Origin: an uncultured Bacteroidaceae bacterium
GTDB lineage: Bacteria > Bacteroidota > Bacteroidia > Bacteroidales > DTU049
Assembly (NCBI GenBank): GCA_964547605.1
Contig: CAZJOL010000002.1
Location: 1 to 40,116, forward strand
Direction: 5' to 3'
DNA: 40,116 nt
In this document: positions 5,201 through 26,856 of the stretch, piece by piece
How positions within the stretch are numbered: the first letter of the stretch is position 1
How the letters are laid out: every line of letters begins with the position of its first letter
Program-made: the position numbers and the translations under genes
Notes under the pieces: generated by a model
Database searches by the model: none
Told to the model about the DNA's origin: nothing
The model's input: only the letters and a program-made list of their open reading frames with translations

Positions 5201-5656
5201 ATTGATGCAACTTCAAAGGAATGGTGGGACGGTGAACAGGACTGGGCTCGCAAAGCATATGCTGTTACTGCCGGACAACACACATTTACGTGGAAATACG
5301 CAAAGGACAACATGGTTGCAGATGGTTCAGATGCAGCATGGGTTGATTATATTGTTTTCCCGCCGCTGGCGACCACAACCGGCTGTGAGGAATTATCCTT
5401 CGGATTTAATATCTATCCGAATCCGGCAACAGAGCTGATGTTTGTTGATGTCAACCTCGCCCATGCGGATAACGTGAACATTGAACTTCTTGACAATACA
5501 GGACGTTTGGTAAGTGTTTTATTCAACGGCAGCATGGCAGCCGGAATGAACAGAACCGAACTGAATGCAGCCGGTATAAGCGGAGGTGTTTACATTATTC
5601 GTGTAAGGACATCGGAAGGTAGCATTTCAAGAATGATAATGACCGCAGGGAAGTAA
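2246..5656 (+). CDS. Peptidase C25 (gingipain-like cysteine protease) precursor: signal peptide, C25 propeptide, catalytic domain, Ig/CARDB-like modules, beta-sandwich domain, T9SS CTD
   Basis: Signal peptide MKKILFSLLLIVVFGSMSAQ. Propeptide-like region (..YIMRDYRGVALHVFPFRYD..). Catalytic His446 in LYTGHGAD (codon 3581-3583) and Cys479 in LSVACVNGNF (codon 3680-3682). VGRFSAES motif. C-terminal NIYPNPATE...GVYIIRV tail. Start lies 13 nt after the upstream paralogue's stop. Confidence 0.9.
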   Translation: MKKILFSLLLIVVFGSMSAQTYQSLSNDANKPLYTIISSTPEETVIEYNFQGFYLSDVQTSQGIKQSVSMPGASPLLVAGEPALCQYSNSLIIPDLAHMQVKVLSADYVDYSNIEIVPSKGNLTRDIDPSSVPYSWGRTYQQNGSFPGAYATLSDPYIMRDYRGVALHVFPFRYDHANHSLRVVKTIRVVVYKDSDDTMDDPFIRTKAVTKVDESFDQLYSRHFINYNQAKYTPVTERGRILVICKPDYMANMAPYVQWKNRIGFPTTIVSTAVTGTTSTAIKTYVTNYYNANGLTFLLFVGDAAAIPVITSGVGGDSDNAYAFITGSDHYPEFYVGRFSAESEGDVDVQVLRTISYEQNPNTSNNWLNRVLGIASSQSGTSPDDGESDYQHIRNLQTQCDNYEYETKYELFDGTQGGLDASGDPTAANVSTVINGGAGLVLYTGHGADTYFVTTNFSNTNVNALTNTTQWPIILSVACVNGNFNGQTCFAEAWLRARTGTTPKGAVATIMSTINQSWAPPMEGQDEMVNVLCETATGNIKHTFGGIVMSGCMKMNDSYGTAGDEMTDTWTVFGDPSLMIRTDTPKTMTVAHPATVPIGTSQLVVNCNTEGAFITVTLNDSIIGTGIINGGTTTVNFTALTGIDTLIVTATKYNYIPYIGEVAIIAASGPYVVYNALAINDVSGNNNAQADFGENILLNVTLFNTGVANAANVVAAITTSNPAVTITDNSETYGAINAGATKLMNNAYAVTVGSNVTDQTSVSFDLNAVYGSDNWNSSFGFVINAPALSIGALVIDDAAGNNNGKLDPGETVNISIASLNNGHAMYPAAIGTLASGSSTLTVVNGSDNIGDMDPASSQNASFSVSADAGATFGSSVTVTYTLGTGFYQVQKVFSMKVGIVDEDYETGDLTQYEWATGGNAPWFVSTSSPYEGAHCSQSGAISDDQNSTMSIAWDVAVADSISFYRKVSCENGSASGSQWDYLEFLIDATSKEWWDGEQDWARKAYAVTAGQHTFTWKYAKDNMVADGSDAAWVDYIVFPPLATTTGCEELSFGFNIYPNPATELMFVDVNLAHADNVNIELLDNTGRLVSVLFNGSMAAGMNRTELNAAGISGGVYIIRVRTSEGSISRMIMTAGK
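5405..5653 (+). other. T9SS C-terminal sorting domain of the second C25 protease
   Basis: FNIYPNPATELMFVDV...LLDNTGRLVSVLF...GGVYIIRVRT... Confidence 0.8.
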
Positions 5657-5674: not shown

Positions 5675-5723
5675 GCCGGATGCCGCTTCATTGCTCAAAT
5701 GAAGCGGCATCCGGCGTTTTTGT
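5675..5723 (+). terminator. Rho-independent terminator after the C25 protease pair
   Basis: Perfect 18-bp stem GCCGGATGCCGCTTCATT / AATGAAGCGGCATCCGGC with a 5-nt loop, followed by GTTTTTGT. Confidence 0.75.
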
Positions 5724-5840
5724 CCCAAAATTGCAAAGTACATGGCAATGATTATATAGGATATGTTTTTAAATTCATTTTGTTTGTCGAAAATATCATT
5801 CAAATTGGCTTTGGAAAGGCTCGAAGTGAAAAAAATGTTA

Positions 5841-5848
5841 TAATATTG
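5841..5848 (+). promoter_or_regulatory. Candidate Bacteroidota -7 promoter box (TAATATTG, one mismatch to TAnnTTTG) for the S46 peptidase gene
   Basis: Located 27 nt upstream of the ATG at 5876 and downstream of the terminator at 5675-5723. Confidence 0.3.
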
Positions 5849-5875
5849 CGATTCGAAACGCACCAGTATCTGATT

Positions 5876-8038
5876 ATGAAAAACAGAATAAATATCCTTG
5901 GGGTTCTTCTTTTTGTTTCAGCATTTTTTCCGGCCAGAGCCGATGAGGGGATGTGGCTTCCGATGTTTATTGACCGGCTCAATTACACGGATATGCAGAA
6001 AATGGGGCTTCATCTTACGCCCGAAGAAATTTATTCAGTCAACAACGGAAGTCTGAAGGATGCCATTGTTATTTTTGGCGGAGGATGCACCGGAGAGATT
6101 GTTTCGGATCAGGGACTGATTTTCACCAATCATCATTGCGGTTATGCTTCTATTGCTTCGCTGAGCACTGTTGAAAATGATATTCTGACCAATGGATATT
6201 ACGCAGCAACCATGGCCGATGAATTGTTCCCGTCATCGAATCTCAATGTTCGTTTTCTGATCCGGATCGAAGATGTAACCAAGCAGATTCTTGATTCGAT
6301 TCCGTACGAAGCCACTGAAATGGAGCGTGATGAAATTGTCGCACGCATCTCGAAACGAATTGAAACCGGCGCTGTGTCAGAGAAATATCAGGAAGCAAAT
6401 GTGAAACCTTTCTTTTATGGCAATGAATATTATCTGTTCGTTTACGAGGTCTATTCGGATGTCCGGCTGGTTCTGAATCCACCATTATCGATCGGTAATT
6501 TCGGTGGCGATACCGACAACTGGATGTGGCCGCGCCATACAGGCGACTTCAGCGTTTTCAGAGTTTACACCGGACCTGATGGAAAGCCCGCCAAATACAG
6601 CAAGGATAATATTCCCATGAAGCCGAAACATTTTCTACCGGTTTCCATTAAACCAAAAAAAGAAAATGACTTTGCAATGGTATTTGGCTATCCGGGCCGC
6701 ACTTCGCGATATATCACAAGCGAGGAAGTCGCATCGAATTATCTTTATGTCAATCCTTCCATTGTGAAAATCCGTGAGAAAAAACTTGCAGTGATGGATG
6801 TAAACATGCGTGCCAGTGATGAAGTCAGACTGCGGTATGCCAGCAAATACGCCACCACTGCCAATTACTGGAAATATTATATCGGGCAGAATAAAGGGAT
6901 TAACAGAAACGACGTGATTGAGCGCAAAAAGATTCTTGAAGACGATTTTGAAACATGGGTGAACAACGATAATATTCCAAAGTTTGGATATTACAAAAAC
7001 GCACTTATCAAAACGCATAATTCAATCGAGAAACTCAGTTCGCTGCGGAAGGTTCAGTATTACATTTCGGAAGCATTTTTCCGCGGCAGTGATGTTATTT
7101 CATTTGCAGGCAAATTCAGGCCACTCATGGCTGAGCTTTCGGCAGAGAAACCCAATCTTTCGAAAATCGAAGAGATGGTGTCTTCACTTAATAAAGTGGC
7201 CGAAAATCATTTTGCCACCTTTGACTATAAAACTGAAATGCAGCTGTACAGTGCCATGCTGGCCATGTATGCAGCCGATGTTCCTTCGGAATACCAACCT
7301 GCATTCTATGTGGTTGTCAGCAATAAATTCAAAAACGATTACGCTCTGTATTCGGATTTTGCATTTCTGGTTTCCATATTTTCGAACAAGGATAAGATGG
7401 ATGCTTTTCTGAAAAATCCCACTAAGGAAGTTTTGACAAAGGATCCATTATTTGAAGCTGCAACGCAGGTTTACGAAATCTACAATAAGCTCGTTGCCGA
7501 GATAAATCCGCTCAACTATCAGCTGAATCAGGGAATGCGCATGTATGTTCAGGGCTTACGCGAAATGTATCCAGAAAAAAATTTCTATCCCGACGCCAAC
7601 AGCACACTGCGTCTTACATACGGCAAAGTCCTCCCATACAGTGCCGGTGATGCCATTGATTATGATTTTGTGACCACGCTGAAAGGTGTGATGGAAAAAG
7701 AAAATCCAAACAATGAGGAATTCATTGTTCCGGCAAGGTTGAAAGAGTTGTATGAGAAAAAAGATTTTGGCCAGTACGGCGAAAACGGCACCATGATTAC
7801 GTGTTTTCTCACCAACAACGATATCACCGGTGGCAACAGCGGATCGCCTGTGCTTAATGGTGATGGTGAACTTATAGGACTGGCCTTCGATGCCAACTGG
7901 GAAGCCATGTCGGGCGATATCGTTTTCGAACCTAAACTGCAGCGTTGCATCTGCGTTGACATCCGCTATGTGCTTTTCTACATCGACAAATATGCCGGTG
8001 GAAGCAGACTTATTGATGAGCTTGAAATTAGAAAATAA
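5876..8038 (+). CDS. Peptidase S46 family dipeptidyl-peptidase (DPP7/DPP11 type), secreted/periplasmic
   Basis: Signal peptide MKNRINILGVLLFVSAFFPARA followed by the S46 hallmark mature N-terminus DEGMWLP. Catalytic His in FTNHHCG. Catalytic Ser in GGNSGSPV (codon 7838-7840, residue 655 from this start). 720 aa from this start. The track start at 5699 lies inside the upstream terminator hairpin and was rejected. Confidence 0.9.
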   Translation: MKNRINILGVLLFVSAFFPARADEGMWLPMFIDRLNYTDMQKMGLHLTPEEIYSVNNGSLKDAIVIFGGGCTGEIVSDQGLIFTNHHCGYASIASLSTVENDILTNGYYAATMADELFPSSNLNVRFLIRIEDVTKQILDSIPYEATEMERDEIVARISKRIETGAVSEKYQEANVKPFFYGNEYYLFVYEVYSDVRLVLNPPLSIGNFGGDTDNWMWPRHTGDFSVFRVYTGPDGKPAKYSKDNIPMKPKHFLPVSIKPKKENDFAMVFGYPGRTSRYITSEEVASNYLYVNPSIVKIREKKLAVMDVNMRASDEVRLRYASKYATTANYWKYYIGQNKGINRNDVIERKKILEDDFETWVNNDNIPKFGYYKNALIKTHNSIEKLSSLRKVQYYISEAFFRGSDVISFAGKFRPLMAELSAEKPNLSKIEEMVSSLNKVAENHFATFDYKTEMQLYSAMLAMYAADVPSEYQPAFYVVVSNKFKNDYALYSDFAFLVSIFSNKDKMDAFLKNPTKEVLTKDPLFEAATQVYEIYNKLVAEINPLNYQLNQGMRMYVQGLREMYPEKNFYPDANSTLRLTYGKVLPYSAGDAIDYDFVTTLKGVMEKENPNNEEFIVPARLKELYEKKDFGQYGENGTMITCFLTNNDITGGNSGSPVLNGDGELIGLAFDANWEAMSGDIVFEPKLQRCICVDIRYVLFYIDKYAGGSRLIDELEIRK

Positions 8039-8069: not shown

Positions 8070-8095
8070 AGGCGCGGGAAACTGCGCCTTTTATT
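8070..8095. terminator. Weak bidirectional terminator between convergent genes
   Basis: AGGCGC-gggaaact-GCGCCT stem-loop followed by TTTATTAT. Sits between the S46 stop (8038) and the stop of the minus-strand gene (8094). Confidence 0.4.
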
Positions 8096-9014
8096 ATCTC
8101 AAGCTGAGTCCTTTCCCTTTCATCCACCGCACACAGAGCGGCAGGCGGTTGATGCGTATAAAGGGATAATTTGAAAGTTTGCCGCCGAATCCGAGATAGA
8201 ATTTTGCCAGATTTTCATTGTTGCTCCCTTCGAAATCGAAGAGCTGGTGCGTGGTGCAGATGTCTGCCAGAATAGAATCGATCAGAAAATGCATGGCGCC
8301 GGTTTTGCGTGCTTCGTTGCCGGAGCCGCTGAACAACAGCACTGCGCGTCCTTCGAATTCCACCAGCAGTATGCCTGCAGTGATTTCGTTGTGCTGGTTC
8401 AGCGCGCAATACGTATTGGCAAGACCAAGGTGCCGCAACTGAAACGACAATGTTTTCAGCGTTGAATACCAGCTTTCATGTTTGCCGAGCGCTTCTCCTT
8501 TATTGTTTTTGAAGAGAGAAATTATGGTTTCGATATCAAATCCTTTGTGTACTGAAAGCCCGTTCCGGGCCGCTTTCCGGATGTTGCGACGGGTATTTTC
8601 GTTGTATCCGGTTCTGATCTTTTCAATATCACAGCCAAGCTGAAGAGTAATATTGGTGAGCATTTCAACGCCGGGTACATTAACCGGGCATGATTCATTG
8701 AGCATGATTTCGGTAAAACGATATTTATGCGGAATGGCCAGCAGAAATCTTTTTACGGTTTCGGCGGAAATTTCTTTTCCGTAAACACCGAGCTGCTGGC
8801 AGAACGGAGGCTGAAACAAATAATGTACTCCCGTTTTTTTTGCTTCAACAAGCGGCATCACACATTGGTAATTATCTTCAATCAGACCATTCCAACCGGG
8901 CGCCACAAGATCGAGATACCATGACATGGCATACATCATTGGCTGCGAAGACTGCATGACTGCTGCATCCCACATATCCCTGTCAATATTTTCGTTTTTG
9001 GCAAACCGTATCAT
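8094..9014 (-). CDS. FemAB-like / GNAT-fold acyltransferase (peptidoglycan-bridge-formation-like family)
   Basis: 306 aa. Pattern W..AV..S....MYAMSWYLDLV..W..L...Y..VMPL....K.G......PPFCQQLG, then YNENTRRNIRKAARNGL, then a C-terminal ..FDFEGS.. This resembles FemAB/Acetyltransf_6-type proteins common in Bacteroidota envelope loci. 4-nt overlap with the upstream gene. Confidence 0.5.
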   Translation of the reverse strand: MIRFAKNENIDRDMWDAAVMQSSQPMMYAMSWYLDLVAPGWNGLIEDNYQCVMPLVEAKKTGVHYLFQPPFCQQLGVYGKEISAETVKRFLLAIPHKYRFTEIMLNESCPVNVPGVEMLTNITLQLGCDIEKIRTGYNENTRRNIRKAARNGLSVHKGFDIETIISLFKNNKGEALGKHESWYSTLKTLSFQLRHLGLANTYCALNQHNEITAGILLVEFEGRAVLLFSGSGNEARKTGAMHFLIDSILADICTTHQLFDFEGSNNENLAKFYLGFGGKLSNYPFIRINRLPLCVRWMKGKGLSLR

Positions 9015-10321
9015 TTTTTCTCTGATTGAAACTGACGGATGGTTTCCGTGATTATTTGCGTCCAGCCTTTCCAGCGGCCGCTTTCAGAAAGAGTATCGTT
9101 GTGCAGCAGCATTTCAAAATGTCCGTTGATTGACAGGATGTAATCGGCCAGGCTGAATAGTTCGATGCGTGTTTCTTCCAGTGTCATTTGCTGATAATCT
9201 TTCAGACTGCCGTCCATTATGCAGAAAGGATGTACAATCAATGGAAGAATTTTATCTGTTTCCAGATCAAAAAAACGGAAAGGACGTGTAGTGCCGGCTC
9301 TGAATCCGTGTCCGGATGCGAACCCCATGGTGTAGTCATTTGTAATTCCGGCTTTGACCAATTGACGGTATGACTGTGGCAGATTCATTCTGAGAAAATG
9401 CCGGCGTGCTGCTGAAATGGATATCCCGATGGTTGTTTCGAGACTTAGTTTTTCGCGCAGCAGTTTTGTATCGTCATCAAGACAATAATATGAAGGGTGC
9501 AGGCCAATCACCGATTCGCGGGCCATTTTTCTGATTTGAGTTACAGCCCTCTGGTGGTGCAGATTTCCGTTCTTATCAAAATTTGTTCTTTGCTGCGATG
9601 CCAGTATGAAAAACAAAACCTGCACTCGGAATTCGCGACTGATTTTATCGATGACATCGAAAGTGTCAAAAGGATCTTTGCGCAAGCCGAGAAAAACCGA
9701 AGGTCTTTCAATAAGCGCGCGAAATCTCCCTTTGACAAGATCACGGCACCATCCGGCCAGGTTGCGAAGAACTCCTTTTGTTCTGTATGAAAACAACATA
9801 TCAACATCGACTGTGAGCGAAAATGTTGGTTCTTCTTTTTTGAAGATGCTTTCGGGAACATGCTGCAGAAGCCGGTTCCGGAGCATGATGATCCATTCAT
9901 CGACAACTGCGCGCTGATGAAAATTGTTTTTAAATGCGAGAGAATGCTGCAAATCGAAACGTCCATGCTGATCCCGTTCAAGGCCTGTGTATTCTTCGTA
10001 TCTGCTCAGCATAAAAAATATGGCAGCAAAAATATCAAATGGAAAATCGAACGATCCTGCAACAGGAAACAAGCAAATATTTTTTTCATCATCGATGACG
10101 ACTTCCGTTTCCTGAGCCGAAACGCCCTTTGGGTGCAGAAATCCGCTGTCGGGAACTGATATATCAGCCGTTTGATTTATGCCATACGAAAGAATGATTT
10201 TTGCTGATGATGCATCAACCGGATTCAGTACATATCCGCAACCAAGCCGTTCACCAAAGATGTAATCGAGCGTGTAGCGCAGCTTGGCATTGTCGAATGA
10301 TGTGAGAACCGCAACAGCCAT
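9011..10321 (-). CDS. Putative polysaccharide deacetylase-like protein (CE4-like beta/alpha barrel with N-terminal accessory domain)
   Basis: 436 aa. N-terminal ..LSRYEEYTG..RDQHGRF.. module. Central LTVDVDM and GLHPSYY segments resemble NodB-homology deacetylase motifs. Operon position between wecB and a Fem-like transferase. The functional call is tentative. Confidence 0.45.
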   Translation of the reverse strand: MAVAVLTSFDNAKLRYTLDYIFGERLGCGYVLNPVDASSAKIILSYGINQTADISVPDSGFLHPKGVSAQETEVVIDDEKNICLFPVAGSFDFPFDIFAAIFFMLSRYEEYTGLERDQHGRFDLQHSLAFKNNFHQRAVVDEWIIMLRNRLLQHVPESIFKKEEPTFSLTVDVDMLFSYRTKGVLRNLAGWCRDLVKGRFRALIERPSVFLGLRKDPFDTFDVIDKISREFRVQVLFFILASQQRTNFDKNGNLHHQRAVTQIRKMARESVIGLHPSYYCLDDDTKLLREKLSLETTIGISISAARRHFLRMNLPQSYRQLVKAGITNDYTMGFASGHGFRAGTTRPFRFFDLETDKILPLIVHPFCIMDGSLKDYQQMTLEETRIELFSLADYILSINGHFEMLLHNDTLSESGRWKGWTQIITETIRQFQSEKK

Positions 10322-10323
10322 GA

Positions 10324-11487
10324 TTATTTTTTTATGTTTTGCCTGATGGTAGATTTATGAAATTCAAGCATTTTTTCACAAATGAATTCAGCAGCGTGAC
10401 CATCGCCAAACACAGGCGGGAACTCGGTTGGAGGATAATTAACCATGGCTTCGGCCTGTGCGGCAATTTCCGGTGCTGAGTGATCGGCAAGTTTAGCTGC
10501 GCGCAGTTCAATAATTTCAACCCATTCGGTTTCGGGTCGCAGAATGATCGATGGGCGCGAAAAGAAATAGGCCTCTTTCTGAACACCGCCTGAATCAGTA
10601 AGTACGAGGCGACAATTTTTTTCGAGCAGAATCATGTCCAGAAACGAAGCAGGTGGAATGATGCGTACATCGGCTCCAACAGGGATGTTGCTGCCAATGT
10701 TCCATGCATCCATCATTTTTTTTGTCCGCGGGTGAACAGGAAAAACAACCGGTAGTCCGGTGTTGATGGAAGCAAGGCATAAAGCGTCGAAGATCATGCG
10801 CAGTCTGTCTTCGTGGTCAGTATTGTCGTTGCGGTGAACTGTAGCGAGAATAAAAGGAACATCTTTCAGCTTCTGTTCTTCGATGATTTTCGATTGTTTT
10901 TCGGCGATACCAGCGAAGAAAACGGAATTATCGAACATGATGTCACCGCCATGAAACACTCCGGGTTTATCCATGGAGTACGGACTCATGAGACCTGCCG
11001 GGAATCCTTCGTTTTCGAGATTTATTATGGCTGTTTTGGTCGGGCAGAACATCAGTGTGGAGCAATGATCAGCCACAATCCTGTTTATTTCTTCCGGCAT
11101 TTTTTTATTGAAAGAACGAAGTCCGGCTTCGATGTGAAAAACGGGAATGTGCAGCTTAGCTGCTGCCACAGCGCCCGCCAGCGTGCTGTTGGTGTCTCCG
11201 TAAATCACCAGCGCATCGGGTTTGTATTCGACAAGAACTTTTTCAATTCCTTCCATCATGCGTCCGGTCTGTTCACCATGACTGGAGGAACCAACGTTGA
11301 GATTGACATTTGGAGCCGGAATGCTGAGTTCGCGAAAAAAAACCTCAGACATATTTTCGTCGTAATGCTGTCCGGTATGAACGATAATTTCTTCAATTTC
11401 GCTGTTGAAATGTTTTTGAATTTCACGGCTGAGTGCAGCTGCTTTTATGATCTGTGGCCTTGCGCCGACAATGGTTACGATTCTCAT
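10324..11487 (-). CDS. wecB: UDP-N-acetylglucosamine 2-epimerase (non-hydrolysing)
   Basis: MRIVTIVGARPQIIKAAALS...HTGQHYDENMS..FF.EL.IP.P..NL.VGS.SHGEQTG..., ..YGDTNSTLAGA..AAKL.IP..H.EAGLRS.. These are canonical WecB/MnaA family motifs. Confidence 0.93.
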   Translation of the reverse strand: MRIVTIVGARPQIIKAAALSREIQKHFNSEIEEIIVHTGQHYDENMSEVFFRELSIPAPNVNLNVGSSSHGEQTGRMMEGIEKVLVEYKPDALVIYGDTNSTLAGAVAAAKLHIPVFHIEAGLRSFNKKMPEEINRIVADHCSTLMFCPTKTAIINLENEGFPAGLMSPYSMDKPGVFHGGDIMFDNSVFFAGIAEKQSKIIEEQKLKDVPFILATVHRNDNTDHEDRLRMIFDALCLASINTGLPVVFPVHPRTKKMMDAWNIGSNIPVGADVRIIPPASFLDMILLEKNCRLVLTDSGGVQKEAYFFSRPSIILRPETEWVEIIELRAAKLADHSAPEIAAQAEAMVNYPPTEFPPVFGDGHAAEFICEKMLEFHKSTIRQNIKK

Positions 11488-12194
11488 TTTTTGAAAGTGT
11501 TGATGATTCCTTCATCCATAAAGCTGTAGAAGGAATCCTGTGAAATGATGATGTGGTCAAGCAATCGGATATCGAACAATGCTGATGCATCGTGAATTTG
11601 TCGTGTGAGGTTTATATCCGAATCGCTTGGATTGAGATTTCCCGAAGGATGATTGTGTCCCAGGATAAGGCTCAGAGAGCGCGTATCGAGGGCCATCTTG
11701 ATTATTTTGCGTATATCAACCTGGGTGGCAACCATGCTGCCCATGCTGATTCTTTCCTTGAATATGACTTTGTTTCTCCTGTTCAACCCCATGATGCAGA
11801 ATTCTTCATGCTGTTTGTCGCAAAGCATGGGCAACAGGGCTTTTTGTGCATCGCGCGATGAGAGTATCAGTTCCTCGTCATCACTACTTTCGCCTTCGCG
11901 TCGACGTGCAATTTCGAGTGCGGCAGCTATGGTCACCGCTTTAGCCGGCCCGATTCCATGGATTTTTTTGATTTCATGAATGGTCAGTGTTGAAAGTTTT
12001 TTGAGACTATTGTCAGCATTCTCAAGCATTTCTCTGGCGAGTTCAAGTGCACTTTTTTTAGAGGTACCACTTCCAATCAGGATGGCAAAGAGCTCAGCGT
12101 TGCTTAGTGCTTCGGAGCCTTTAACCAGCATTTTTTCGCGCGGGCGGTCGTCTGCAGCCCACTCCTTGATTGTTTTTTTCTTGTTATTCTCCAC
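11484..12194 (-). CDS. radC: RadC-family JAMM-motif protein (UPF0758)
   Basis: N-terminal ..DRPREKMLVKGSEALSNAELFAILIGSGT.. helix-hairpin-helix region and C-terminal HNHPSGNLNPSDSD JAMM motif. 4-nt ATGA overlap with wecB. Confidence 0.9.
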   Translation of the reverse strand: MENNKKKTIKEWAADDRPREKMLVKGSEALSNAELFAILIGSGTSKKSALELAREMLENADNSLKKLSTLTIHEIKKIHGIGPAKAVTIAAALEIARRREGESSDDEELILSSRDAQKALLPMLCDKQHEEFCIMGLNRRNKVIFKERISMGSMVATQVDIRKIIKMALDTRSLSLILGHNHPSGNLNPSDSDINLTRQIHDASALFDIRLLDHIIISQDSFYSFMDEGIINTFKK

Positions 12195-15511: not shown

Positions 15512-16564
15512 ATGTCAGCACCAGGATTTAAAATGATTGTCGCAGGCCCTTGCAGCGCCGAATCCGAGAAACTCTGCCTCGATGTAGCGGCTGGACTTGC
15601 ACGTACGGGTTATGTCGATCTTTTTCGCGGAGGAGTATGGAAACCCCGCACGCTGCGCGGTATGTACGAAGGACCCGGCAACGATGGCCTGAAATATCTG
15701 CTGGCCGTCAGGGATCAATACAAATTGCCGGTTGTGACCGAAGCCGCTACCACAGCGCATGTCGAAGCAGTTCTGAAAGCCGGCCTTGATGCAATCTGGA
15801 TTGGAGCCCGCACAGTAACCGATCCTTTCAGTGTTCAGGAACTGGCCAATGCTCTGCAGGGAAGCAATATCCGCATTCTTGTGAAAAATCCGTTGGTGCC
15901 TGATGTACGGCTATGGGCCGGTGCAGTAGATCGTTTGCTGAATAAGGGGCTGAACGTCGAAGCGCTCATTCACCGCGGTTTTGTGACGTATAATGAAAGC
16001 AAATTCCGTAATGAACCGCTTTGGGTGCTGATGGCCGAGATGCGCACCCGATTCCCGGATATTAAGGTCATAGCCGATCCGAGTCATATGGCAGGCAATT
16101 CGTTTTATGTGGCTGGTCTGGCCGCACAAGCAAAAGAAATGGAGGCAGATGGGCTCATGATCGAAGTGCATTCGGATCCGCCAAGCGCTTTGTCCGATGC
16201 CAACCAGCAGATTACTCCAGCTGAATTTATTTTTCTCATAGATAGTCTGTGCGGCAAGCAGTCCACATCTCTGCATGATGCTTCGCTCGAGGCATTGCGG
16301 CGCGAAATTGATGAAACCGATGAACGACTTTTACGCATCCTTGCACAACGCATCGATATTGTAAAACGCATGGGTATTGTGAAACGCGATGCAGGCATGA
16401 CCATCATGCAGGGCGGCCGCTGGAAAAGTCTGGTGGAAGATCGTCTGAACCGGGCTGCAGCCCTTGATCTCAATGATGAATTCATCCGTGAATTATTACA
16501 GGTTATTCATGATGAATCGTTGCGGATTCAAATGGCTATAATTAATAAGGATCAGAACGAATAG
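15512..16564 (+). CDS. Bifunctional 3-deoxy-7-phosphoheptulonate (DAHP) synthase (class I-beta) / chorismate mutase type II
   Basis: MIVAGPCSAES, GGVWKPRT, IWIGAR and ADPSH motifs of AroA(I-beta)/KDO8PS-like DAHP synthases. C-terminal ..LRREIDETDERLLRILAQRIDIVKRMG..K chorismate-mutase helix bundle. Confidence 0.9.
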   Translation: MSAPGFKMIVAGPCSAESEKLCLDVAAGLARTGYVDLFRGGVWKPRTLRGMYEGPGNDGLKYLLAVRDQYKLPVVTEAATTAHVEAVLKAGLDAIWIGARTVTDPFSVQELANALQGSNIRILVKNPLVPDVRLWAGAVDRLLNKGLNVEALIHRGFVTYNESKFRNEPLWVLMAEMRTRFPDIKVIADPSHMAGNSFYVAGLAAQAKEMEADGLMIEVHSDPPSALSDANQQITPAEFIFLIDSLCGKQSTSLHDASLEALRREIDETDERLLRILAQRIDIVKRMGIVKRDAGMTIMQGGRWKSLVEDRLNRAAALDLNDEFIRELLQVIHDESLRIQMAIINKDQNE

Positions 16565-18828: not shown

Positions 18829-20079
18829 TTACTGAAGCTTGAATTTCACTGGCAGCGTCATACTGACGGCCACCGGTTTTCCTTTGTTTTCTGCGGGTTT
18901 CCAGTCGGGCATCATTTTCACTACGCGCACAGCTTCGGCATCGAGATCGGGCGAAACGGATTCCTGAACTTTTACATTTGTCACTTTGCCGCTGCTGCTG
19001 ACTTCGAAGCTGACATATACGGTGCCCTGGATTCCTTTGGTTTTGGCAGTTTCGGGGTATTTAATGTTTTTCACCATGAATGCTGACATGGCTTCGTTGC
19101 CGCCCGGGTATTCAGGCATAACTTCGGCGGTCTCGAAAACCTCTCCGGAAGCCGTTTCGGTTGAAGTCTGATTCTGGGGATCTGCAACTTCGGTTGAAGC
19201 GGAATCCTTTCCTGATTTTTCATCGCTTCCGCTTTTCGATCCGCAGGCGGTGAACCAGAGGGCACCAACAGCAAGCATCAGTGCGGGAATTAGCCTGACG
19301 GCAGATTTTCTGAACTTTTTGGTTTGTTTCATCATAATGATTCGGGTTTTAATGAATGAAGGTCTGAGCTGACTTACAGGCAAACCGGGATAATGTCCCA
19401 CAGCTGCCGAAAGAAGTATCTGCTGGTATTGAACCATGTCGGTTCCTTTATCAATGACTGCGCGATCGGCCTGAAATTCATGGATGCTGCGGAGTTCTTT
19501 CGAAAGCAGCCAGTATAGCGGATTTATCCAAAACAGAATTGAAAAGATTCCCGACAAAACCAGGTCGGCCGAATGATAAAGACGTGCATGCTGTTCCTCG
19601 TGCAGGCTTATTGCCGTGAACATCTGATTCTGTGGAATGAAGATCATGTTGAAGAATGAAAATGCCTGCTCGTTTTCAGGCAGAAAATAATACCTGAATT
19701 GTCCGGCCCGGAAACACTTGTGTTTACTTGTGTAGCGGCCAATACGAAGAAGTCCAGTGGCAAATCTGATCAGTGCTGCGCCTGAAAGGATGAAGAAAAG
19801 TGTTGTCAGAAATCCGCTTAAATTGAATCCTGAACCTGCATTATCAGTGGCGGTCGGAGAAATCGAAACGGGTTGTAATGTGATTGTCGGTAACACAGTA
19901 TTTGTCTGGTCTGGCAGCAAGTTTCCGGCCAGGGGAGCCAATGCCGCAATCACCATAAACGAAACAACCCAAAGGCGTGCGATTTTAAACGGTACCCTGT
20001 TTCGCAGAATCAGAAAATAAATCAACCCGCTGAAGGCCAGCATGAGGTTCGCCTGAATGATATATAATGCGGTGTTCAT
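18829..20079 (-). CDS. BlaR1-like M56 metallopeptidase sensor fused to a TonB C-terminal domain
   Basis: N-terminal multi-TM region. HEXXH zinc motif in SLHEEQHARLYH. Extra TM (LIPALMLAVGALWF), low-complexity linker. C-terminal EVMPEYPGGNEAM..F...I.YP..A...GIQGTVYVSFEV...G.V TonB_C fold. Confidence 0.85.
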   Translation of the reverse strand: MNTALYIIQANLMLAFSGLIYFLILRNRVPFKIARLWVVSFMVIAALAPLAGNLLPDQTNTVLPTITLQPVSISPTATDNAGSGFNLSGFLTTLFFILSGAALIRFATGLLRIGRYTSKHKCFRAGQFRYYFLPENEQAFSFFNMIFIPQNQMFTAISLHEEQHARLYHSADLVLSGIFSILFWINPLYWLLSKELRSIHEFQADRAVIDKGTDMVQYQQILLSAAVGHYPGLPVSQLRPSFIKTRIIMMKQTKKFRKSAVRLIPALMLAVGALWFTACGSKSGSDEKSGKDSASTEVADPQNQTSTETASGEVFETAEVMPEYPGGNEAMSAFMVKNIKYPETAKTKGIQGTVYVSFEVSSSGKVTNVKVQESVSPDLDAEAVRVVKMMPDWKPAENKGKPVAVSMTLPVKFKLQ

Positions 20080-20456
20080 GACTTCTTTTGTTTTTTGACC
20101 TCGTCGTTTATCAGCTGCTGGATTTCTTCGAGCTCAGAAATGCTCAGGTTCTTTTTTGAAGTAAAGAATGAGACAAGATTACTCAGTGAATTGTCGAAGT
20201 GGCGCTTTACCAGGTTGTTTGCGCAGTTTTCGGTGTATTGTTCACGGCTGAGTAAAGGATAATATGAATGTGTATTTCCATAGGCCTTGTGAGCGACAAT
20301 CCCTTTTTTCTCCAGAATGCGGATGATGGTGGAAACGGTTGTGTAGGCCGGTTTCGGCTCCGGCATCTTTTCAATTATGTCTTTTACAAAGGCTTCGCCG
20401 AGATCCCACAGAAATTCCATAATCTGTTCTTCGGCACGGGTGAGTTCTTTTTCCAT
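20076..20456 (-). CDS. BlaI/MecI/CopY-family winged-helix transcriptional repressor
   Basis: 126 aa. LTRAEEQIMEFLW..GEAFVKDII..MPEPKPAYTTVSTIIRILEKKGIV. 4-nt ATGA overlap with the downstream M56 sensor gene. Confidence 0.9.
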   Translation of the reverse strand: MEKELTRAEEQIMEFLWDLGEAFVKDIIEKMPEPKPAYTTVSTIIRILEKKGIVAHKAYGNTHSYYPLLSREQYTENCANNLVKRHFDNSLSNLVSFFTSKKNLSISELEEIQQLINDEVKKQKKS

Positions 20457-20643: not shown

Positions 20644-20651
20644 TAATTTTG
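20644..20651 (+). promoter_or_regulatory. Bacteroidota -7 promoter box TAATTTTG for the PorV-like/PorU-like operon
   Basis: Exact TAnnTTTG match, with 25 nt before the ATG at 20677 and 43 nt before the ATG at 20695. Confidence 0.4.
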
Positions 20652-20694
20652 ACTTTTCGCCGTTACTTCACTCAAAATGCAGTACACAGCCAAT

Positions 20695-21795
20695 ATGAGA
20701 AAAATATTTGCAATTATAGTTTCGGTTTTGCTTTCGGGTATTTCCCTGGCTCAGGCACCCAAGTACTCGAATGAATTTCTTGCCATCGGTGTTGGCGGGC
20801 GGGCTTTGGGCATGTCGAATTCAGTGGTCGCTTCTGTCGGAGATGCATCGGCGGGTTACTGGAATCCGGCCGGGCTGGTCGATTGCGAAGCCCCGCGTCA
20901 GCTTTTTCTGATGCATTCGGAGTATTTTGCAGGCATAGCCAAATACGACAATATTTCGCTGGCAGCGGTCACGAGCGATTCTTCGGCGCTTGCTTTTTCG
21001 TTCATCCGCTTCGGAGTTGATGATATCCCCAATACCACAGAGCTGATCGATGCCCAGGGAAATATAGACTATGACCGGATTACGACATTCAGCGCCATTG
21101 ACAATGCTTTTATCGTGAGTTATTCACGCAAACTGCCCATCAAAAACCTGCAGGTCGGAGGAAATGTAAAAATCATCCGCCGTACAGTGGGCGATTTTGG
21201 CGGCAGCTGGGGCTTTGGCATTGATGCTGGTGCCCAGTACAGAAAAGACAACTGGCGTTTCGGTGCAGTATTGCGCGACGTCACATCAACATTCAATGCC
21301 TGGTCTTTTACACTCGATGATGCAACCCGCGAAGTGTTTACGCTCACCGGAAACGAAATCCCCGAAAACAGTCTGGAGCTCACCATGCCTCGATTGCTGC
21401 TGGGTGCGGGAAGAAAATTTGAAATATCGAACAGTTTTTCCATTTATCCCGAAGCCGGCATGGACATTACGTTTGATGGGAAGAGAAATGTTCTTCTGAA
21501 AACCGGTTTTGCCAGTGCCGACCTGCATGCAGGATTTGAAGTGAATTACAAAAATGTGGCTTATCTGCGCGGAGGATTTGGCAATATTCAGCAGGAAACC
21601 AATTTTGACGGTAAAAAAGTAACCACGGTGCAGCCCAATATGGGTGTGGGAATCCGCATAAAAGACATCATGAGCATTGACTATGCGCTGACCGATCTGG
21701 GCGATGTGAGTGTTGCTCTGTATTCGCATGTATTTTCACTTGTTTTCAATATCAGGCCGAAAGGCACAGGGACCAGTATTAATCCAAGCATCTGA
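20695..21795 (+). CDS. PorV/PorQ-family T9SS-associated outer-membrane beta-barrel protein
   Basis: Signal peptide MRKIFAIIVSVLLSGISLAQA; the longer ORF start at 20677 is an alternative. Family motif LAIGVGGRALGMSNSVVASVGDASAGYWNPAGL. Alternating beta-strand pattern to the C-terminus. Stop is 3 nt before the PorU-like gene. Confidence 0.75.
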   Translation: MRKIFAIIVSVLLSGISLAQAPKYSNEFLAIGVGGRALGMSNSVVASVGDASAGYWNPAGLVDCEAPRQLFLMHSEYFAGIAKYDNISLAAVTSDSSALAFSFIRFGVDDIPNTTELIDAQGNIDYDRITTFSAIDNAFIVSYSRKLPIKNLQVGGNVKIIRRTVGDFGGSWGFGIDAGAQYRKDNWRFGAVLRDVTSTFNAWSFTLDDATREVFTLTGNEIPENSLELTMPRLLLGAGRKFEISNSFSIYPEAGMDITFDGKRNVLLKTGFASADLHAGFEVNYKNVAYLRGGFGNIQQETNFDGKKVTTVQPNMGVGIRIKDIMSIDYALTDLGDVSVALYSHVFSLVFNIRPKGTGTSINPSI

Positions 21796-21798
21796 TGA

Positions 21799-24700
21799 AT
21801 GAATAAACATATACTGATTATTTTCCTATTATGTATTGGTTGCGGTAATACTGTGCTGGCGCAGAATTACGGCAATGAATGGATCAATTATTCGCAGCCC
21901 TATTATAAAATAAAAGTAGCGCAGGACGGCATCTACCGGATCTCATATTCAACCCTGGCTTCATCCGGAATTCCGCTTGCAACCTTCGACCCGAGACAGA
22001 TTCAGATTTTCGCCAATGGCGTTGAACAATACATTTATGTGCATGGCGAAAATGATGGTTTTTTCAATTCAGGTGACTATATAGAATTCTATGGAAAGCG
22101 CAATCGTGGCGACTTTGATGCAGGTGTATATGACAACCCGGCCGATATACCAAATCCTGATTACAGTTTGTTCAACGATACGACGGTTTATTTTCTGACA
22201 TGGAATGCTTCGATTACAAACCGGCGAGTAAGCATTGAAACAGACCGGAATTTTTCGGGTTACACCAGCGAGAACTACGTATGGTTCAATTCAAGAACTA
22301 ATTACACATCGCGTTATTTCAATGGCAAAACGGATTTGAATGGCATTACGGATCCACGCTACACCGATAGTGAAGGATGGTTCGACTCTGGATTTGATGT
22401 TAATGCATCTACATCCTACATGCGTAGTATCCCAACTCCGTCGGTCTATTCATCAGGTCCTGCTGCTGATATTGACTTACTGTTGGTTGGCGCATCGGAT
22501 TACGCAAACACCAATCCCTATCCAGATCATCATATGGTGATGAATTTTGCCGGAATTAATGTGGACACTGTCTTTGAAGGTTATGTGCCTATCAGGATTC
22601 TGAAAAGCAGACCTGCCAGTTCACTGACAACCGGAGCTACAGTATTCAGCTTTACGTTGCCCAATGATCTGGGCAGTGCTGTGGATTTTACAACATTGAG
22701 CTATATCAACATTCGTTATCCGCGACAATTGAATCTGAACTCATCGGGTTCCATGCTTTTTGAATCGAACGATGGGGCGGGAGCAAAAACGTATTTTGCA
22801 TTTATCGGGCTTACAGCGCCAACAACGGATACGGTCGTTGTTCATGATTTGACGAATCATCGCCGGATTCTGACATCACGTGCAGGTGCCAGTGTAAATT
22901 TTCTGGTACCGAACAGTGGAAGTACAAAACAATTATATCTTGCTTCGGAAAGCAATGTGTTGTCTGTTGCATCCCTTAAACCGGTTAACAGCAGCGGCAC
23001 TTCGGGATACTTTATTAATTATGGTGATGCAGCGTATTCCGGCACCGATTACCTGATTGTAACGCATCGCTCGTTGCTAAGCAAAGCCAATGAATATGGG
23101 GCATACAGATCGACCACCGGTTATACTCCGGTTGTAGCTGATGCTGATTTATTATATGATGAATTTGCCTACGGCATTAATAAACACCCGCTTGGAATAA
23201 CGAATTTTACTCGTTTTGCGCGTACTTATTTTACCGACACCATTCATGGATTGTTCCTTATTGGAAAAGGATACCGCGCAGGCGACACCCAGTACAATTA
23301 CCGGAAAAGCGCCACATATAATGGCTTGACGCTTGTGCCTTCATTCGGTAATCCGCCTTCGGATAACCTTTTTACTTCTCAGCTTGAAGACAATAACTAT
23401 GCTCCGGCAATTCCGACCGGCCGGCTCGCAGCCCGCAATTCCACTGCTGTTGGATGGTATCTCGAAAAAATGCAGGATTTTGAAACGGAGCAGAATCAAC
23501 CCTACAATCCCGCCGATCCCTTTGCCAATCAATGGATGAAGCGGGTGTTGCATTTTGCCGGTGGTTCCGATTACGGTCAGATGCTGACATTGCTGAATTA
23601 TCTGAACCATTACCGCGACATGCTTCAGGCGCCTTATTTCGGAGCCGATGTCAAGACATTTTCAAAGTCATCAACTGTTCCGATTCAACAAAATCAAAGC
23701 GACAGCCTGAAAGATCTGATCAATGATGGTGTGGCCATTCTGAATTTCTTCGGTCATGCCGCCGGAATCGGCTTTGACATCAGTATTGATAATCCGCAGG
23801 ATTACAGCAATTACAAACGGTATCCGTTTCTGATTGCCAATTCATGTTTTGCCGGTGATCTTTATCAACCGACCAACAGCTCAGCTGAAGAATTTGTGTT
23901 GATTGAAAACAAAGGCACCATCGGATATCTGGGCTCAATAACAAAATCACTCATGACTTCGCTTGACAGCTACAGCTCTGAGCTGATAAGAAGAATTTCG
24001 AAGCAGGACTACAATAAGCCCATCGGTTACATAATAATGGAAACGGTGAAAACGCTTCAGAGTTATACGACATCGTCCTATATCCGTGATGTATGTCTTG
24101 AAATGACTTTGCACGGAGATCCAGTATTGCGAATTGGCGGGCAACCACAACCAGATCTGATGCTGACAACGGGGAGTATTTATTTCAACCCATCCAATGT
24201 CACAAGTGATCTCGATTCCTTCACCGTAAATGTGATTGCACATAATGTCGGAATGGCTGTATCAGATTCTGTCATTCTTGAGCTGACAAGAATTTTTCCT
24301 GACAATACCACAGAAGTATTTTCCAAAATGATCAGATGTCCGGCCTTCTCCGACACGATTCCATTTACGCTTCCGGTGAGCCCGCTGAATGGTGTTGGTT
24401 TGAATTCCTTCTCGGCTATGGTCGATGCTTTTGACGCACTGTCGGAAGCAAATGAAACAAACAATTCAACAAATACAACACTGTTCATAATTTCGAACGA
24501 TGTTAATCCTGTGTATCCATACGAGTTTGAAGTATTGCCCGATACTTTTGTGACGCTGGTTGCCAGCACTGGTTATGCCATGGCGTCAACAGGAACTTAC
24601 ATATTTCAGATTGATACGACTGATTCTTTCGACAGTCCTTTTCTGGTTCAGAGCAATCCGATAACGCAAAGCGGAGGCATAATCGAATGGACGTTGCCGT

Positions 24701-26856
24701 TCAGCATGCTGTCAATGCCAGACTCCACGGTATATTTCTGGCGTGTGGGTTCGACCAGCAACAACAACTGGCGTGAAAGTTCATTTCAATATATCGCTGG
24801 AAAACGTGGATGGGGGCAGGCGCATTTCTTTCAGTTCAAGAAAGATAACTTCAATTATGTTTCGTATAACAAGCCATCCAGAAAACTTGAATTCATAAAC
24901 ACCATCGTCAATATTCAGGCGCAGACAGGTTATTATCCGTATATTCTTTGGTCAGAAGAATGGTATAAAATCAATAACATACTTAAAGGGCAATGGTCGT
25001 GCACCAATTACAATGGTGACGGGATGAAGTTTGCGATTTTCGATACACTCAGTATTTCTCCCATGGCCAATACTGATCCCGATCTGAACGGGCTCGGACC
25101 TTTTGATGCACTGAACTGCCGTTCATATGTATATTATGATTTTGACTTTTTCACATATGGAGAGCCCTGGTACTCGCGGATGTACAACATGATTGACAGT
25201 GTGCCTGATGGGTATTACGTGCTTGGCTTCAGCCACCGGAATCACAATGCGCAGAACTGGCCCGATTCGCTGTACGAAGCTTTTGAAAGCATTGGATCCA
25301 ATGTAATCAGGACACTTCCGAACAATTCACCTTACATAATATTCGGACGCAAGGGTTATCTGAACATGGCCGATGAACGTGTTGGCGCGGGTATTACCAG
25401 CATTATTTCCGGTTCATGGGATGTTACAACAAACTGGAATGAAGGGTATATTGAATCAACCACCATTGGCCCTGCTGCAGAGTGGGGAAGCCTGCACTGG
25501 CGGGTGAAGAGTTTCGAGCCCGGCCTCTGGACTGATACTGTGCGTCTGTCAGTTATTGGAATCAAACAGGATGGTACCGAAGACGTTGTAATTCCTGACC
25601 TTCCGCCCGTTCCGGATTCGCTTGATATTCTGAATCTGAGTTCCCGCATCGATGCTTCGGTTTATCCTTATCTGCGGCTGCATATGAATATGAGTGATGA
25701 CAGTTTGCGCACTTCGGCGCAGCTTGAGCGCTGGCAAGTTTTGTTTGAGCCAGTGCCCGAAACGGCCATTGACCCGGTTTCGTATTTCACTTTTTACGAT
25801 GATACTTTACAGGAAGGTGAAATGGTGAAATTGGCCATTGCCACGAGCAATGTTGGACAGATTGACTTTCCCGACAGTCTTTCCGTGGCCTACTGGCTCA
25901 TTGACAATGACCGGAACATTCATGAAATTGCGTGGAAGAAACTTAGATTACACCCTGTTGGAGATATTCTTGTTGACTCCATTTCATTCTCAACCAAAGG
26001 ATTTGCCGGCAGCAACAGTCTTTGGGTAGAGTTCAATCCTGTTGATTCCACCACCGGGTATTACGACCAACTGGAACAATATCATTTCAACAACATTGCT
26101 GAGATTAAATTTATAGTTGACAAGGATCTCATCAACCCCATGCTGGATGTGACTTTTGATGGTGTCCATATTCTTGACGGAGATATTGTGAGTGCACAGC
26201 CACTGATTGATATAATGCTGAAAGACGAAAATAAATTCCTGCTGCTGGATGATACTTCCGCCTTCAGGATTTATCTGCTGAGGCCAGGCGCCACTGATCT
26301 GGAGAGGGTTTTCTTCACTAAACACGGACAGGAAAACATGCGGTTCTATCCACCTTCAACGACATCGAACAACACGGCCCGCATTGAGTTCCCGGCTGGT
26401 GCATTCCCCGACGGGGTTTACAAATTGGTGGTGCAGGCGCGCGACAAGAGCGGCAATGAGAGCGGAAGCATTGACTATTCCATCAACTTCGAAGTCATCA
26501 ACAAACCCGCCATCACCGATGTTTTGAACTGGCCCAATCCGTTCAGCACCAAAACGCATTTTGTTTTTACACTCACAGGATCGGTAGTTCCGGAATATTT
26601 CAAAATTCAGGTAATGACAGTAACCGGAAAAGTGGTCAGGGAAATTGACAAGTCGGAGCTCGGACCGATTCATATTGGCCGCAACATCACTGAATATGCC
26701 TGGGATGGCCACGATGAATTCGGCGATCAGTTGGCAAACGGGGTTTACCTGTACAGAGTCATTGTAAAACTCGACGGGCAGCAGATGGAGAAAATCGAAA
26801 CTCCGGCAGGTCAATATTTCACCAAGGAGTTTGGGAAGATGATGCTCATCCGCTAG
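21799..26856 (+). CDS. PorU-like C25-family peptidase (putative T9SS sortase paralogue), 1685 aa
   Basis: Signal peptide. N-terminal YYKIKVAQDGIYRISYSTLASSG...DYIEFYG module. C25 core DYLIVTH...LLYDEF..G...FLIGKG, IPTGRLAA, His653 in NFFGHAAG (codon 23755-23757), Cys683 in IANSCFAGD (codon 23845-23847), LHGDP. Two CARDB-like modules (..SEANETNNS.., ..QYHFNNIAE..). C-terminal beta-sandwich NWPNPFS...GVYLYRVIV. Confidence 0.8.
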   Translation: MNKHILIIFLLCIGCGNTVLAQNYGNEWINYSQPYYKIKVAQDGIYRISYSTLASSGIPLATFDPRQIQIFANGVEQYIYVHGENDGFFNSGDYIEFYGKRNRGDFDAGVYDNPADIPNPDYSLFNDTTVYFLTWNASITNRRVSIETDRNFSGYTSENYVWFNSRTNYTSRYFNGKTDLNGITDPRYTDSEGWFDSGFDVNASTSYMRSIPTPSVYSSGPAADIDLLLVGASDYANTNPYPDHHMVMNFAGINVDTVFEGYVPIRILKSRPASSLTTGATVFSFTLPNDLGSAVDFTTLSYINIRYPRQLNLNSSGSMLFESNDGAGAKTYFAFIGLTAPTTDTVVVHDLTNHRRILTSRAGASVNFLVPNSGSTKQLYLASESNVLSVASLKPVNSSGTSGYFINYGDAAYSGTDYLIVTHRSLLSKANEYGAYRSTTGYTPVVADADLLYDEFAYGINKHPLGITNFTRFARTYFTDTIHGLFLIGKGYRAGDTQYNYRKSATYNGLTLVPSFGNPPSDNLFTSQLEDNNYAPAIPTGRLAARNSTAVGWYLEKMQDFETEQNQPYNPADPFANQWMKRVLHFAGGSDYGQMLTLLNYLNHYRDMLQAPYFGADVKTFSKSSTVPIQQNQSDSLKDLINDGVAILNFFGHAAGIGFDISIDNPQDYSNYKRYPFLIANSCFAGDLYQPTNSSAEEFVLIENKGTIGYLGSITKSLMTSLDSYSSELIRRISKQDYNKPIGYIIMETVKTLQSYTTSSYIRDVCLEMTLHGDPVLRIGGQPQPDLMLTTGSIYFNPSNVTSDLDSFTVNVIAHNVGMAVSDSVILELTRIFPDNTTEVFSKMIRCPAFSDTIPFTLPVSPLNGVGLNSFSAMVDAFDALSEANETNNSTNTTLFIISNDVNPVYPYEFEVLPDTFVTLVASTGYAMASTGTYIFQIDTTDSFDSPFLVQSNPITQSGGIIEWTLPFSMLSMPDSTVYFWRVGSTSNNNWRESSFQYIAGKRGWGQAHFFQFKKDNFNYVSYNKPSRKLEFINTIVNIQAQTGYYPYILWSEEWYKINNILKGQWSCTNYNGDGMKFAIFDTLSISPMANTDPDLNGLGPFDALNCRSYVYYDFDFFTYGEPWYSRMYNMIDSVPDGYYVLGFSHRNHNAQNWPDSLYEAFESIGSNVIRTLPNNSPYIIFGRKGYLNMADERVGAGITSIISGSWDVTTNWNEGYIESTTIGPAAEWGSLHWRVKSFEPGLWTDTVRLSVIGIKQDGTEDVVIPDLPPVPDSLDILNLSSRIDASVYPYLRLHMNMSDDSLRTSAQLERWQVLFEPVPETAIDPVSYFTFYDDTLQEGEMVKLAIATSNVGQIDFPDSLSVAYWLIDNDRNIHEIAWKKLRLHPVGDILVDSISFSTKGFAGSNSLWVEFNPVDSTTGYYDQLEQYHFNNIAEIKFIVDKDLINPMLDVTFDGVHILDGDIVSAQPLIDIMLKDENKFLLLDDTSAFRIYLLRPGATDLERVFFTKHGQENMRFYPPSTTSNNTARIEFPAGAFPDGVYKLVVQARDKSGNESGSIDYSINFEVINKPAITDVLNWPNPFSTKTHFVFTLTGSVVPEYFKIQVMTVTGKVVREIDKSELGPIHIGRNITEYAWDGHDEFGDQLANGVYLYRVIVKLDGQQMEKIETPAGQYFTKEFGKMMLIR
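26527..26853 (+). other. C-terminal T9SS CTD-like / FlgD-Ig-like beta-sandwich of the PorU-like protein
   Basis: NWPNPFSTKTHFVFTL...KIQVMTVTGKVVREI...EYAWDGHDEFGDQLANGVYLYRVIVK. Confidence 0.65.

Follow-up and report, generated by a model that had tools for sequence, protein, structure and literature searches.

Does a locus in which the gene for a PorV-like barrel is followed directly by the gene for a PorU-like peptidase encode the ordinary T9SS (type IX secretion system) attachment arm, or a second pair of related proteins? The question is posed by positions 20644-26856 (+) of a 40,116-nt stretch of DNA from an uncultured Bacteroidaceae bacterium (GCA_964547605.1, contig CAZJOL010000002.1), hereafter the window. 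A preliminary description of this DNA had proposed a non-canonical, paralogous sorting pair in reversed gene order and had implied that it was new. What we found is an unexceptional representative of a catalogued family, PorV2/PorU2, whose two genes are paralogues of the PorV/PorU arm of the T9SS attachment complex. The implied novelty was not borne out, because the pair is already known from curated NCBIfam models (NF052325 and NF052324), whose cutoffs both window proteins passed, and from RefSeq, where the orthologues of Crocinitomix algicola already bear the names PorU2 (WP_066755385.1) and PorV2 (WP_066756125.1). By comparison with better known T9SS components, we consider it probable that the two genes form a paralogous module in which PorV2 tethers a sortase-like PorU2 to the cell surface, where it would act on T9SS cargo.

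Re-reading the sequence confirmed the adjacent pair of open reading frames (ORFs), the 3-nt gap between them and all the peptide motifs quoted for them in the preliminary description. The upstream gene, porV2 (20677..21795, +), encodes a 372-aa outer-membrane beta-barrel protein of the PorV/PorQ family, and porU2 (21799..26856, +) encodes a 1685-aa PorU-like C25 peptidase; the porV2 stop codon TGA occupies 21793-21795 and is followed by a 3-nt spacer (TGA) before the porU2 ATG at 21799. PorV2 scored 478.5 bits against the equivalog model NF052325 (PorVQ2, 'putative type IX sorting system protein PorV2'; cutoff 325 bits), aligning aa 14-359 with model positions 9-353 of 354. PorU2 scored 702.2 bits against the equivalog_domain model NF052324 (PorU_rel_Nterm, 'putative T9SS sortase PorU2'; cutoff 450 bits), aligning aa 5-889 with positions 2-879 of the 879-position model, which was also matched by 17/17 aligned PorU2 homologues.

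Neither protein is canonical, as had been claimed: PorV2 fell below the canonical PorV model NF033710 (29.9 bits, cutoff 250) and the PorQ model NF033711 (64.8 bits, cutoff 220), and PorU2 fell below the canonical PorU model NF033707 (T9SS_sortase; 207.7 bits, cutoff 420). The claim of a reversed gene order was likewise upheld. The canonical reference, Fluviicola taffensis, has PorU (Fluta_2550) and then PorV (Fluta_2551) (supplement of PMC7323717), and in six Fluviicola-like or other Flavobacteriales loci the canonical order is a PorP/SprF-family gene, porU, porV and ispF. From this reference we recovered 120 canonical PorU proteins and judged the separation of PorU from PorU2 by reciprocal hidden Markov model (HMM) scores. 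On the PorU model, canonical Fluviicola PorU proteins scored 1216-1226 bits (F. taffensis 1216) and Crocinitomicaceae PorU2 proteins 199-211, and on the PorU2 model the latter scored 636-708 bits and the former 117-119. A PorU2 C25 HMM kept the two groups wholly apart: of the 120 canonical PorU proteins, the 114 with any score reached 24-62 bits, and 269 PorU2 proteins lay at 396-643 bits. Genuine PorV proteins encoded beside canonical porU scored 390-407 bits on the PorV model. These non-overlapping ranges agree with the earlier claim of a paralogous pair and support a placement of PorU2/PorV2 as a separate paralogous family with no intermediates. Within the family Crocinitomicaceae, Fluviicola species have the canonical porU-porV pair, and C. 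algicola, Taishania pollutisoli and a metagenome-assembled genome (MAG) labelled Fluviicola sp. have PorU2/PorV2; because both pair types occur within this family, the two would be paralogues and not lineage-specific orthologues.

Compared with the PorU-PorV arm of the attachment complex (Porphyromonas gingivalis PorU 6za2; Flavobacterium johnsoniae PorV 6h3i/8gl6), the window pair shares a PorU-type N-terminus, the C25 His/Cys dyad, a homologous C-terminal domain (CTD), a PorV-like barrel and the adjacency of the two genes. However, in addition to missing the equivalog models and reversing the gene order, it combines a longer peptidase (~1680 aa in PorU2, ~1290 aa in PorU), with extra ILEI-like and beta-sandwich modules, and a shorter barrel protein (~365 aa in PorV2, ~425 aa in canonical PorV).

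The assignment of the barrel protein to the PorV/PorQ family withstood three comparisons. PorV2 scored 101.6 bits on the PorV/PorQ superfamily model NF033709 (cutoff 90), which places it among proteins with a FadL-type barrel fold; its AlphaFold2 (AF2) model, with a predicted local distance difference test score (pLDDT) of 76.7, shows a barrel in which DSSP counts about 14-15 strands, and the best structural matches in the PDB are F. johnsoniae PorV chains 8gl6_F and 6h3i_F, with template modelling (TM) scores of 0.60-0.65 and FadL behind at ~0.5. When the PorV2 profile was compared with PDB sequences, F. johnsoniae PorV was the sole match (E = 1.4e-5). A signal-peptide-like segment (20677..20751, +; aa 1-25, ...SGISLA / QAPKY) opens the protein, with Met7 as an alternative start; both this segment and its counterpart in PorU2 were judged by eye from the sequence. 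Among 41 homologues, Q26 hardly varies and the stretch from K29 to L35 does not vary at all; GVGGRALGMSNSVVASVGDASAGYWNPAGL stands at aa 38. PorV2 is more strongly conserved than PorU2, with at least 59% identity across its top 120 matches.

The PorU-style N-terminus and the intact C25 dyad that had been described for the larger protein were also recovered. A signal-peptide-like segment (21799..21861, +; aa 1-21, ...NTVLA / QNYGNEW) is followed directly by a nearly invariant Q22 and by a PorU-type N-terminal region (21862..23049, +; aa 22-417), which is delimited by the alignments to NF033707 and NF052324 and carries YYKIKVAQDGIYRISYSTL (aa 35) as well as DYIEFYG (aa 93); positions 4-739 of the PorU model NF033707 align with PorU2 aa 32-787. 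The peptidase C25 domain (23050..24132, +; aa 418-778) scored 166.8 bits against PF01364 (E = 1.1e-48), above the gathering score, and its His and Cys lie at the gingipain positions, so that PorU2 belongs to peptidase family C25. The catalytic His position, His653 in FFGHAAG (23755..23757, +), aligns with RgpB His211 and the catalytic Cys position, Cys683 in ANSCFAG (23845..23847, +), with RgpB Cys244, the RgpB numbers being counted along the printed profile alignments; in the same alignments the two residues stand opposite the GHGG and TATC motifs of PorU 6za2. Both are invariant in an alignment of 17 diverse PorU2 homologues. Among PDB sequences the best match of the PorU2 profile was P. gingivalis PorU 6za2 (E = 1.6e-13), followed by the gingipains RgpB and Kgp (~1e-6); a single-sequence phmmer search of PorU2 against the same sequences gave no match, and the family profile was needed.

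The extra ~800 aa beyond the NF052324 coverage were characterised through a structure model: AF2 folds aa 880-1685 (806 aa, pLDDT 87) into a chain of beta-sandwiches that ends in a further sandwich and is interrupted by a single ILEI-like module of alpha/beta type. A CARDB-like beta-sandwich follows the C25 domain (24136..24498, +; aa ~780-900), where PF07705 scored 15.9 bits, below its cutoff of 22.7, over model positions 2-100 of 101; several PorU2 homologues have a precomputed CARDB match. Next come two beta-rich domains (24493..25050, +; aa ~899-1084), modelled as blocks of pLDDT ~87-94, for which no Pfam match was found and no family can be assigned. The two CARDB-like modules of the preliminary description are weakly supported: the first has a sub-threshold CARDB match, the second lacks a Pfam match, and both are beta-sandwiches in the model. 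The ILEI/PANDER-like alpha/beta module (25141..25356, +; aa 1115-1186) scored 34.9-36.3 bits against PF15711 (cutoff 27), a match that is precomputed in most homologues; it also gave a weak profile match to FAM3B and shows helices in the AF2 model. Three further beta-sandwich domains (25402..26505, +; aa ~1202-1569) come from the AF2 model, with sub-threshold matches to Big_13 and Y_Y_Y. A Foldseek search with the 806-aa model returned only generic multi-Ig chains, with TM scores of at most 0.19, and PorU, and gave no specific functional lead. A PorZ-like extension was considered and rejected, because the AF2 model contains no beta-propeller.

The C-terminal beta-sandwich (26524..26856, +; aa ~1576-1685) is the best-conserved part of the PorU2 family and carries the motifs NWPNPF, TGKVVRE, NGVYLYRV and GKMMLIR. 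It is homologous to the CTD of PorU and resembles a type A T9SS CTD: in the profile alignment, aa ~1506-1651 correspond to PorU residues 1001-1143, the region of the PorU CTD, and hhalign brought the PNP, TGkvV and GVYxxRV motifs into register with the type A CTD of the C25 cargo protein encoded in the window (E = 0.003). A FlgD_ig match of 20.7 bits was sub-threshold. The proposal of a CTD-like C-terminus is supported by the two profile comparisons.

PorU2 is widespread: clustered at 90%, the scored candidates include more than 1150 homologues, and relatives occur in at least 593 stretches of a collection of species-representative genomes. The family comprises more than 150 clusters at 50% identity, with C25-profile scores all between 380 and 540 bits, and the best 150 matches of the PorU2 C25 profile in the representatives were all PorU2, with no canonical PorU among them. 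By their labels, the carriers fall into Bacteroidales, Flavobacteriales, Chitinophagales and Saprospiraceae. Since the median full length is 1679 aa in PorU2 (1287 aa in canonical PorU), the great length and extra modules that had been taken as peculiar to this locus are those of the whole family. Conservation of the pair and of its gene order, a check that the preliminary description had suggested, could be followed at loci whose sequence reaches far enough upstream: there, a co-oriented barrel gene directly precedes porU2 in 69/72 genome loci and in 64/66 independent metagenome loci (133/138), an arrangement of adjacent, co-oriented genes with the barrel first that the window shares. The commonest spacing in related loci is a 4-nt overlap, and so tight, often overlapping a pair suggests co-translation in a fixed proportion. 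No third gene conserved beside the pair was found in the related loci.

We favour PorU2 as a paralogue of the T9SS machinery because both family cutoffs are passed, the barrel comes first in 133/138 loci, the dyad is invariant and the CTD is homologous to that of PorU. In the attachment complex, PorU and PorZ retain their CTDs; PorV holds PorU and PorQ holds PorZ, which PorQ takes over from the translocon (PMC10947112). By analogy, PorV2 and PorU2 would both be exported via Sec; PorV2 would insert into the outer membrane as a PorV/FadL-type barrel, and PorU2 would use its CTD to cross the outer membrane through the T9SS translocon. That domain would then stay uncleaved and be held by PorV2, giving a surface tether like those of PorV-PorU and PorQ-PorZ. 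At the surface, the C25 domain with His653 and Cys683 may process some of the T9SS cargo, working as an endopeptidase or a transpeptidase, removing cargo CTDs and possibly joining the cargo to a surface glycolipid, and the ~800 extra residues of PorU2 might serve as a stalk, a binding platform or both.

Several observations weigh against this reading. Canonical PorU/PorV and PorU2/PorV2 were not found in one genome, in that PorU2-bearing contigs and canonical PorU hits shared no contig, assembly or name, and no canonical pair was seen near PorU2, the reach being 10 kb in 80 genome loci and ~3 kb in 80 metagenome loci. One coincidence, a longest contig of 9,010 bp for both a PorV2 hit (P0190) and a canonical PorU hit (P0481), was discounted, since such a contig cannot accommodate both genes and the hits differ in source. 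The terms 'second' and 'auxiliary' draw on the name given by the curators and on co-occurrence at the level of the family Crocinitomicaceae. The C-terminus of PorU2 misses the curated CTD thresholds (PF18962, 13.3 bits with a cutoff of 27; TIGR04183, cutoff 23, no hit at E <= 0.01). PorU2 stands without an adjacent PorV2 in 5/138 loci (L025, L028, L042, L162 and L164), and no cargo class is tied to the pair, because nothing else in its neighbourhood is conserved. In the literature searched we found no experiment or publication on PorU2/PorV2, so that every mechanistic step is drawn by analogy; T9SS reviews name only GldJ and GldO as paralogues.

What else might the pair be? It is unlikely, although by no means far-fetched, that PorU2 is no sortase but is itself T9SS cargo, a surface C25 protease or adhesin whose dyad degrades external substrates, with PorV2 as its private anchor or shuttle in the manner of SprF for SprB and PorQ for PorZ. 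A large beta-sandwich 'stalk' with an ILEI-like module is frequent in adhesins and surface enzymes, PorU2 shows no linkage to any cargo or glycan-pathway gene, and the arrangement of one barrel with one partner is that of the adjacent sprB and sprF, where, as in other pairs with a type B CTD and a PorP/SprF protein, a dedicated FadL-family barrel gene adjoins the gene for the large surface protein that the barrel anchors (PMC9143113). However, the PorV2 barrel belongs to the PorV/PorQ family and not to PorP/SprF (PF11751), and the C-terminus of PorU2 resembles type A or PorU CTDs and not type B. With the gingipains (RgpB, Kgp and the product of the window's 2246-5656 gene, C25b) PorU2 has in common the C25 fold, the catalytic dyad and, presumably, a dependence on the T9SS through a CTD, yet these proteins carry Propeptide_C25, Peptidase_C25_C and a canonical Por_Secre_tail, none of which reaches threshold in PorU2, which begins with the PorU N-terminal region in their stead. 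Cargo status is further disfavoured by the homology of the N-terminal ~400 aa to the N-terminus specific to PorU, and not to the gingipain propeptide (PF08126) found in C25b, by a nearest solved relative that is PorU by profile, with the gingipains well behind, and by the occurrence of PorU2 as a single copy per locus, highly conserved across orders, as would be expected of machinery. The PorZ-PorQ pair offers a related comparison, since there a PorV/PorQ-family barrel holds a surface protein through its uncleaved CTD (PMC10947112), and of the two models it is that of PorQ which gives PorV2 the higher score (64.8, with 29.9 for PorV), yet under the PorQ cutoff of 220, and PorU2 differs from PorZ in having a C25 domain.

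A very unlikely alternative is that PorU2/PorV2 is the sole sortase pair of its carriers, a lineage-specific replacement of canonical PorU/PorV. The failure to find a genome with both pairs by comparing contigs and assemblies, and the lack of a canonical pair in the flanks of PorU2 given above, are what would be expected of such a replacement; but the co-occurrence searches were blind to whole genomes, the orders that carry PorU2 (Bacteroidales, Flavobacteriales and Chitinophagales, and also Saprospiraceae) contain canonical PorU as well, both pair types are found within Crocinitomicaceae, and the '2' chosen by the curators implies a second copy. Two further proposals concern the extension of PorU2. 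PorZ has two beta-propellers. The stem domain of POMGNT1, which is related to ILEI/PANDER, binds carbohydrate, and it is conceivable, if highly improbable, that PorU2 merges the roles of PorU and PorZ in a self-sufficient two-component complex, with the C25 domain performing transpeptidation and the ILEI-like and beta-sandwich extension presenting the glycolipid. The ILEI/PANDER domain exceeds its Pfam cutoff and is conserved in most homologues, the conserved genes number only two, and in P. gingivalis PorZ is reported to deliver anionic lipopolysaccharide (A-LPS) to PorU (PMC8545088); however, a beta-propeller is lacking from the extension, no similarity to PorZ could be detected in it, and the ILEI match is short, at about 70 residues. 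A broader version, which seems to us rather doubtful, is that PorV2-PorU2 could be a self-contained attachment machine serving a cargo class or a glycan anchor unlike those of PorU, PorV, PorQ and PorZ, in which the PorU2 extension would replace the glycolipid presentation by PorZ. Taking these together, we retain PorU2 as a probable PorV2-tethered, sortase-like paralogue of the machinery.

A single locus matters little here, as the NCBI annotation pipeline would name the pair automatically. The PorU2/PorV2 family, in contrast, is a real gap in T9SS biology, being widespread over several Bacteroidota orders and strongly conserved, with intact catalytic residues. If it proved to supply a second sortase, one with cargo or an anchor to itself, the view of surface attachment in environmental Bacteroidota would change, and the attachment step could be modelled more simply, with two components. 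C. algicola and T. pollutisoli are cultured carriers.

Upstream of the pair, the feature begins at 20644, 33 nt before the porV2 ATG, and this start coincides with TAATTTTG (20644..20651, +), a putative -7 promoter match that lies 25 nt upstream of the ATG and fits TAnnTTTG, which we take to be the Bacteroidota -7 consensus; a sigma-70 promoter scan is uninformative for Bacteroidota. Divergent from porV2, the region 18829-20456 (-) encodes a Penicillinase_R repressor of the BlaI type, together with an M56 protein that resembles BlaR1 and includes a TonB_C domain. The preliminary description had suggested links of the pair to this BlaI/BlaR1-TonB unit and to two C25 proteases ~15 kb away, and these did not hold, as none of them is a conserved neighbour: among 80 related loci, both C25 genes and BlaI were found in 0/80, and BlaR1-TonB and fusA in 1/80 each. 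A functional link to BlaI/BlaR1-TonB, to the C25 cargo genes or to the str ribosomal operon was rejected, because none is conserved beside the pair elsewhere, and the adjacency of BlaI/BlaR1 to porV2 looks incidental. The neighbours that do recur, in a subset of loci, appear by eye to be of a housekeeping kind (PurS-, LptB-, TatC- and Lnt-like proteins and a CDP-alcohol phosphatidyltransferase).

Two gingipain-like proteins with Por_Secre_tail domains are encoded in the same window, and from these a T9SS is evidently present in the organism. The first C25 gene (1-2232, +) is truncated by the 5' edge of the window, and the TTG at 34 is not its real start, because its frame (frame 1) runs open from base 1 onwards, with the His motif 'YTAHGY' already inside it. 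The second (2246-5656) combines Propeptide_C25 (PF08126), C25, C25_C and Por_Secre_tail, and both form a protease cluster with an S46 Dpp7-like peptidase gene (5699-8038). The regions 8094-12194 (-) and 15512-16564 (+) contain a FemAB-like gene and genes for a VimE-like deacetylase (191.8 bits against NF053580, under the cutoff of 440), WecB and RadC. A DAHP synthase/chorismate mutase gene lies nearby, and the ensemble presumably resembles the vimA-vimE-vimF-aroG region of P. gingivalis. Such a vim-like region suggests that the organism performs sortase-type glycolipid attachment, and the Wbp/Vim pathway makes the linking sugar by which T9SS cargo is attached (PMC7468200).

Some observations concern individual related loci. 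Around the canonical genes, loci L089-L092 and L173-L176, from Fluviicola-like and related genomes, have a strongly conserved order of Mur ligase, GldJ-like protein (FGE-sulfatase domain), PorP/SprF, porU, porV and ispF, complete in 4/6 loci, and NF052318, which describes a long-form N-terminal extension of PorU, was matched by both Fluviicola-type PorU proteins scanned. In the place of PorV2, an M19 membrane dipeptidase gene was seen at L025:8861-9847 and L028:2338-2931 and a divergent DEAD-box helicase gene in L042. PorU2 of a Salibacteraceae MAG (L054:9992-15121) is split into ORFs of 562 and 1146 aa by a frameshift or assembly error, or is a pseudogene. Two MAGs labelled 'Akkermansia sp.' (L058 and L074) carry the pair, and the label is probably wrong. 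A PorU2 (P0098) and a PorV2 (P0189) are both labelled 'candidate division KSB1 bacterium' and probably come from one 8668-bp contig, which would be either a real occurrence in the Fibrobacteres-Chlorobi-Bacteroidetes (FCB) group outside Bacteroidota or a binning error. The MAG contig CAZMPB010000014.1 (L015) also has a PorV2/PorU2 pair; its DNA is unrelated to that of the window (GC content 41% vs 46%), and only the homologous genes align, with 65-81% identity.

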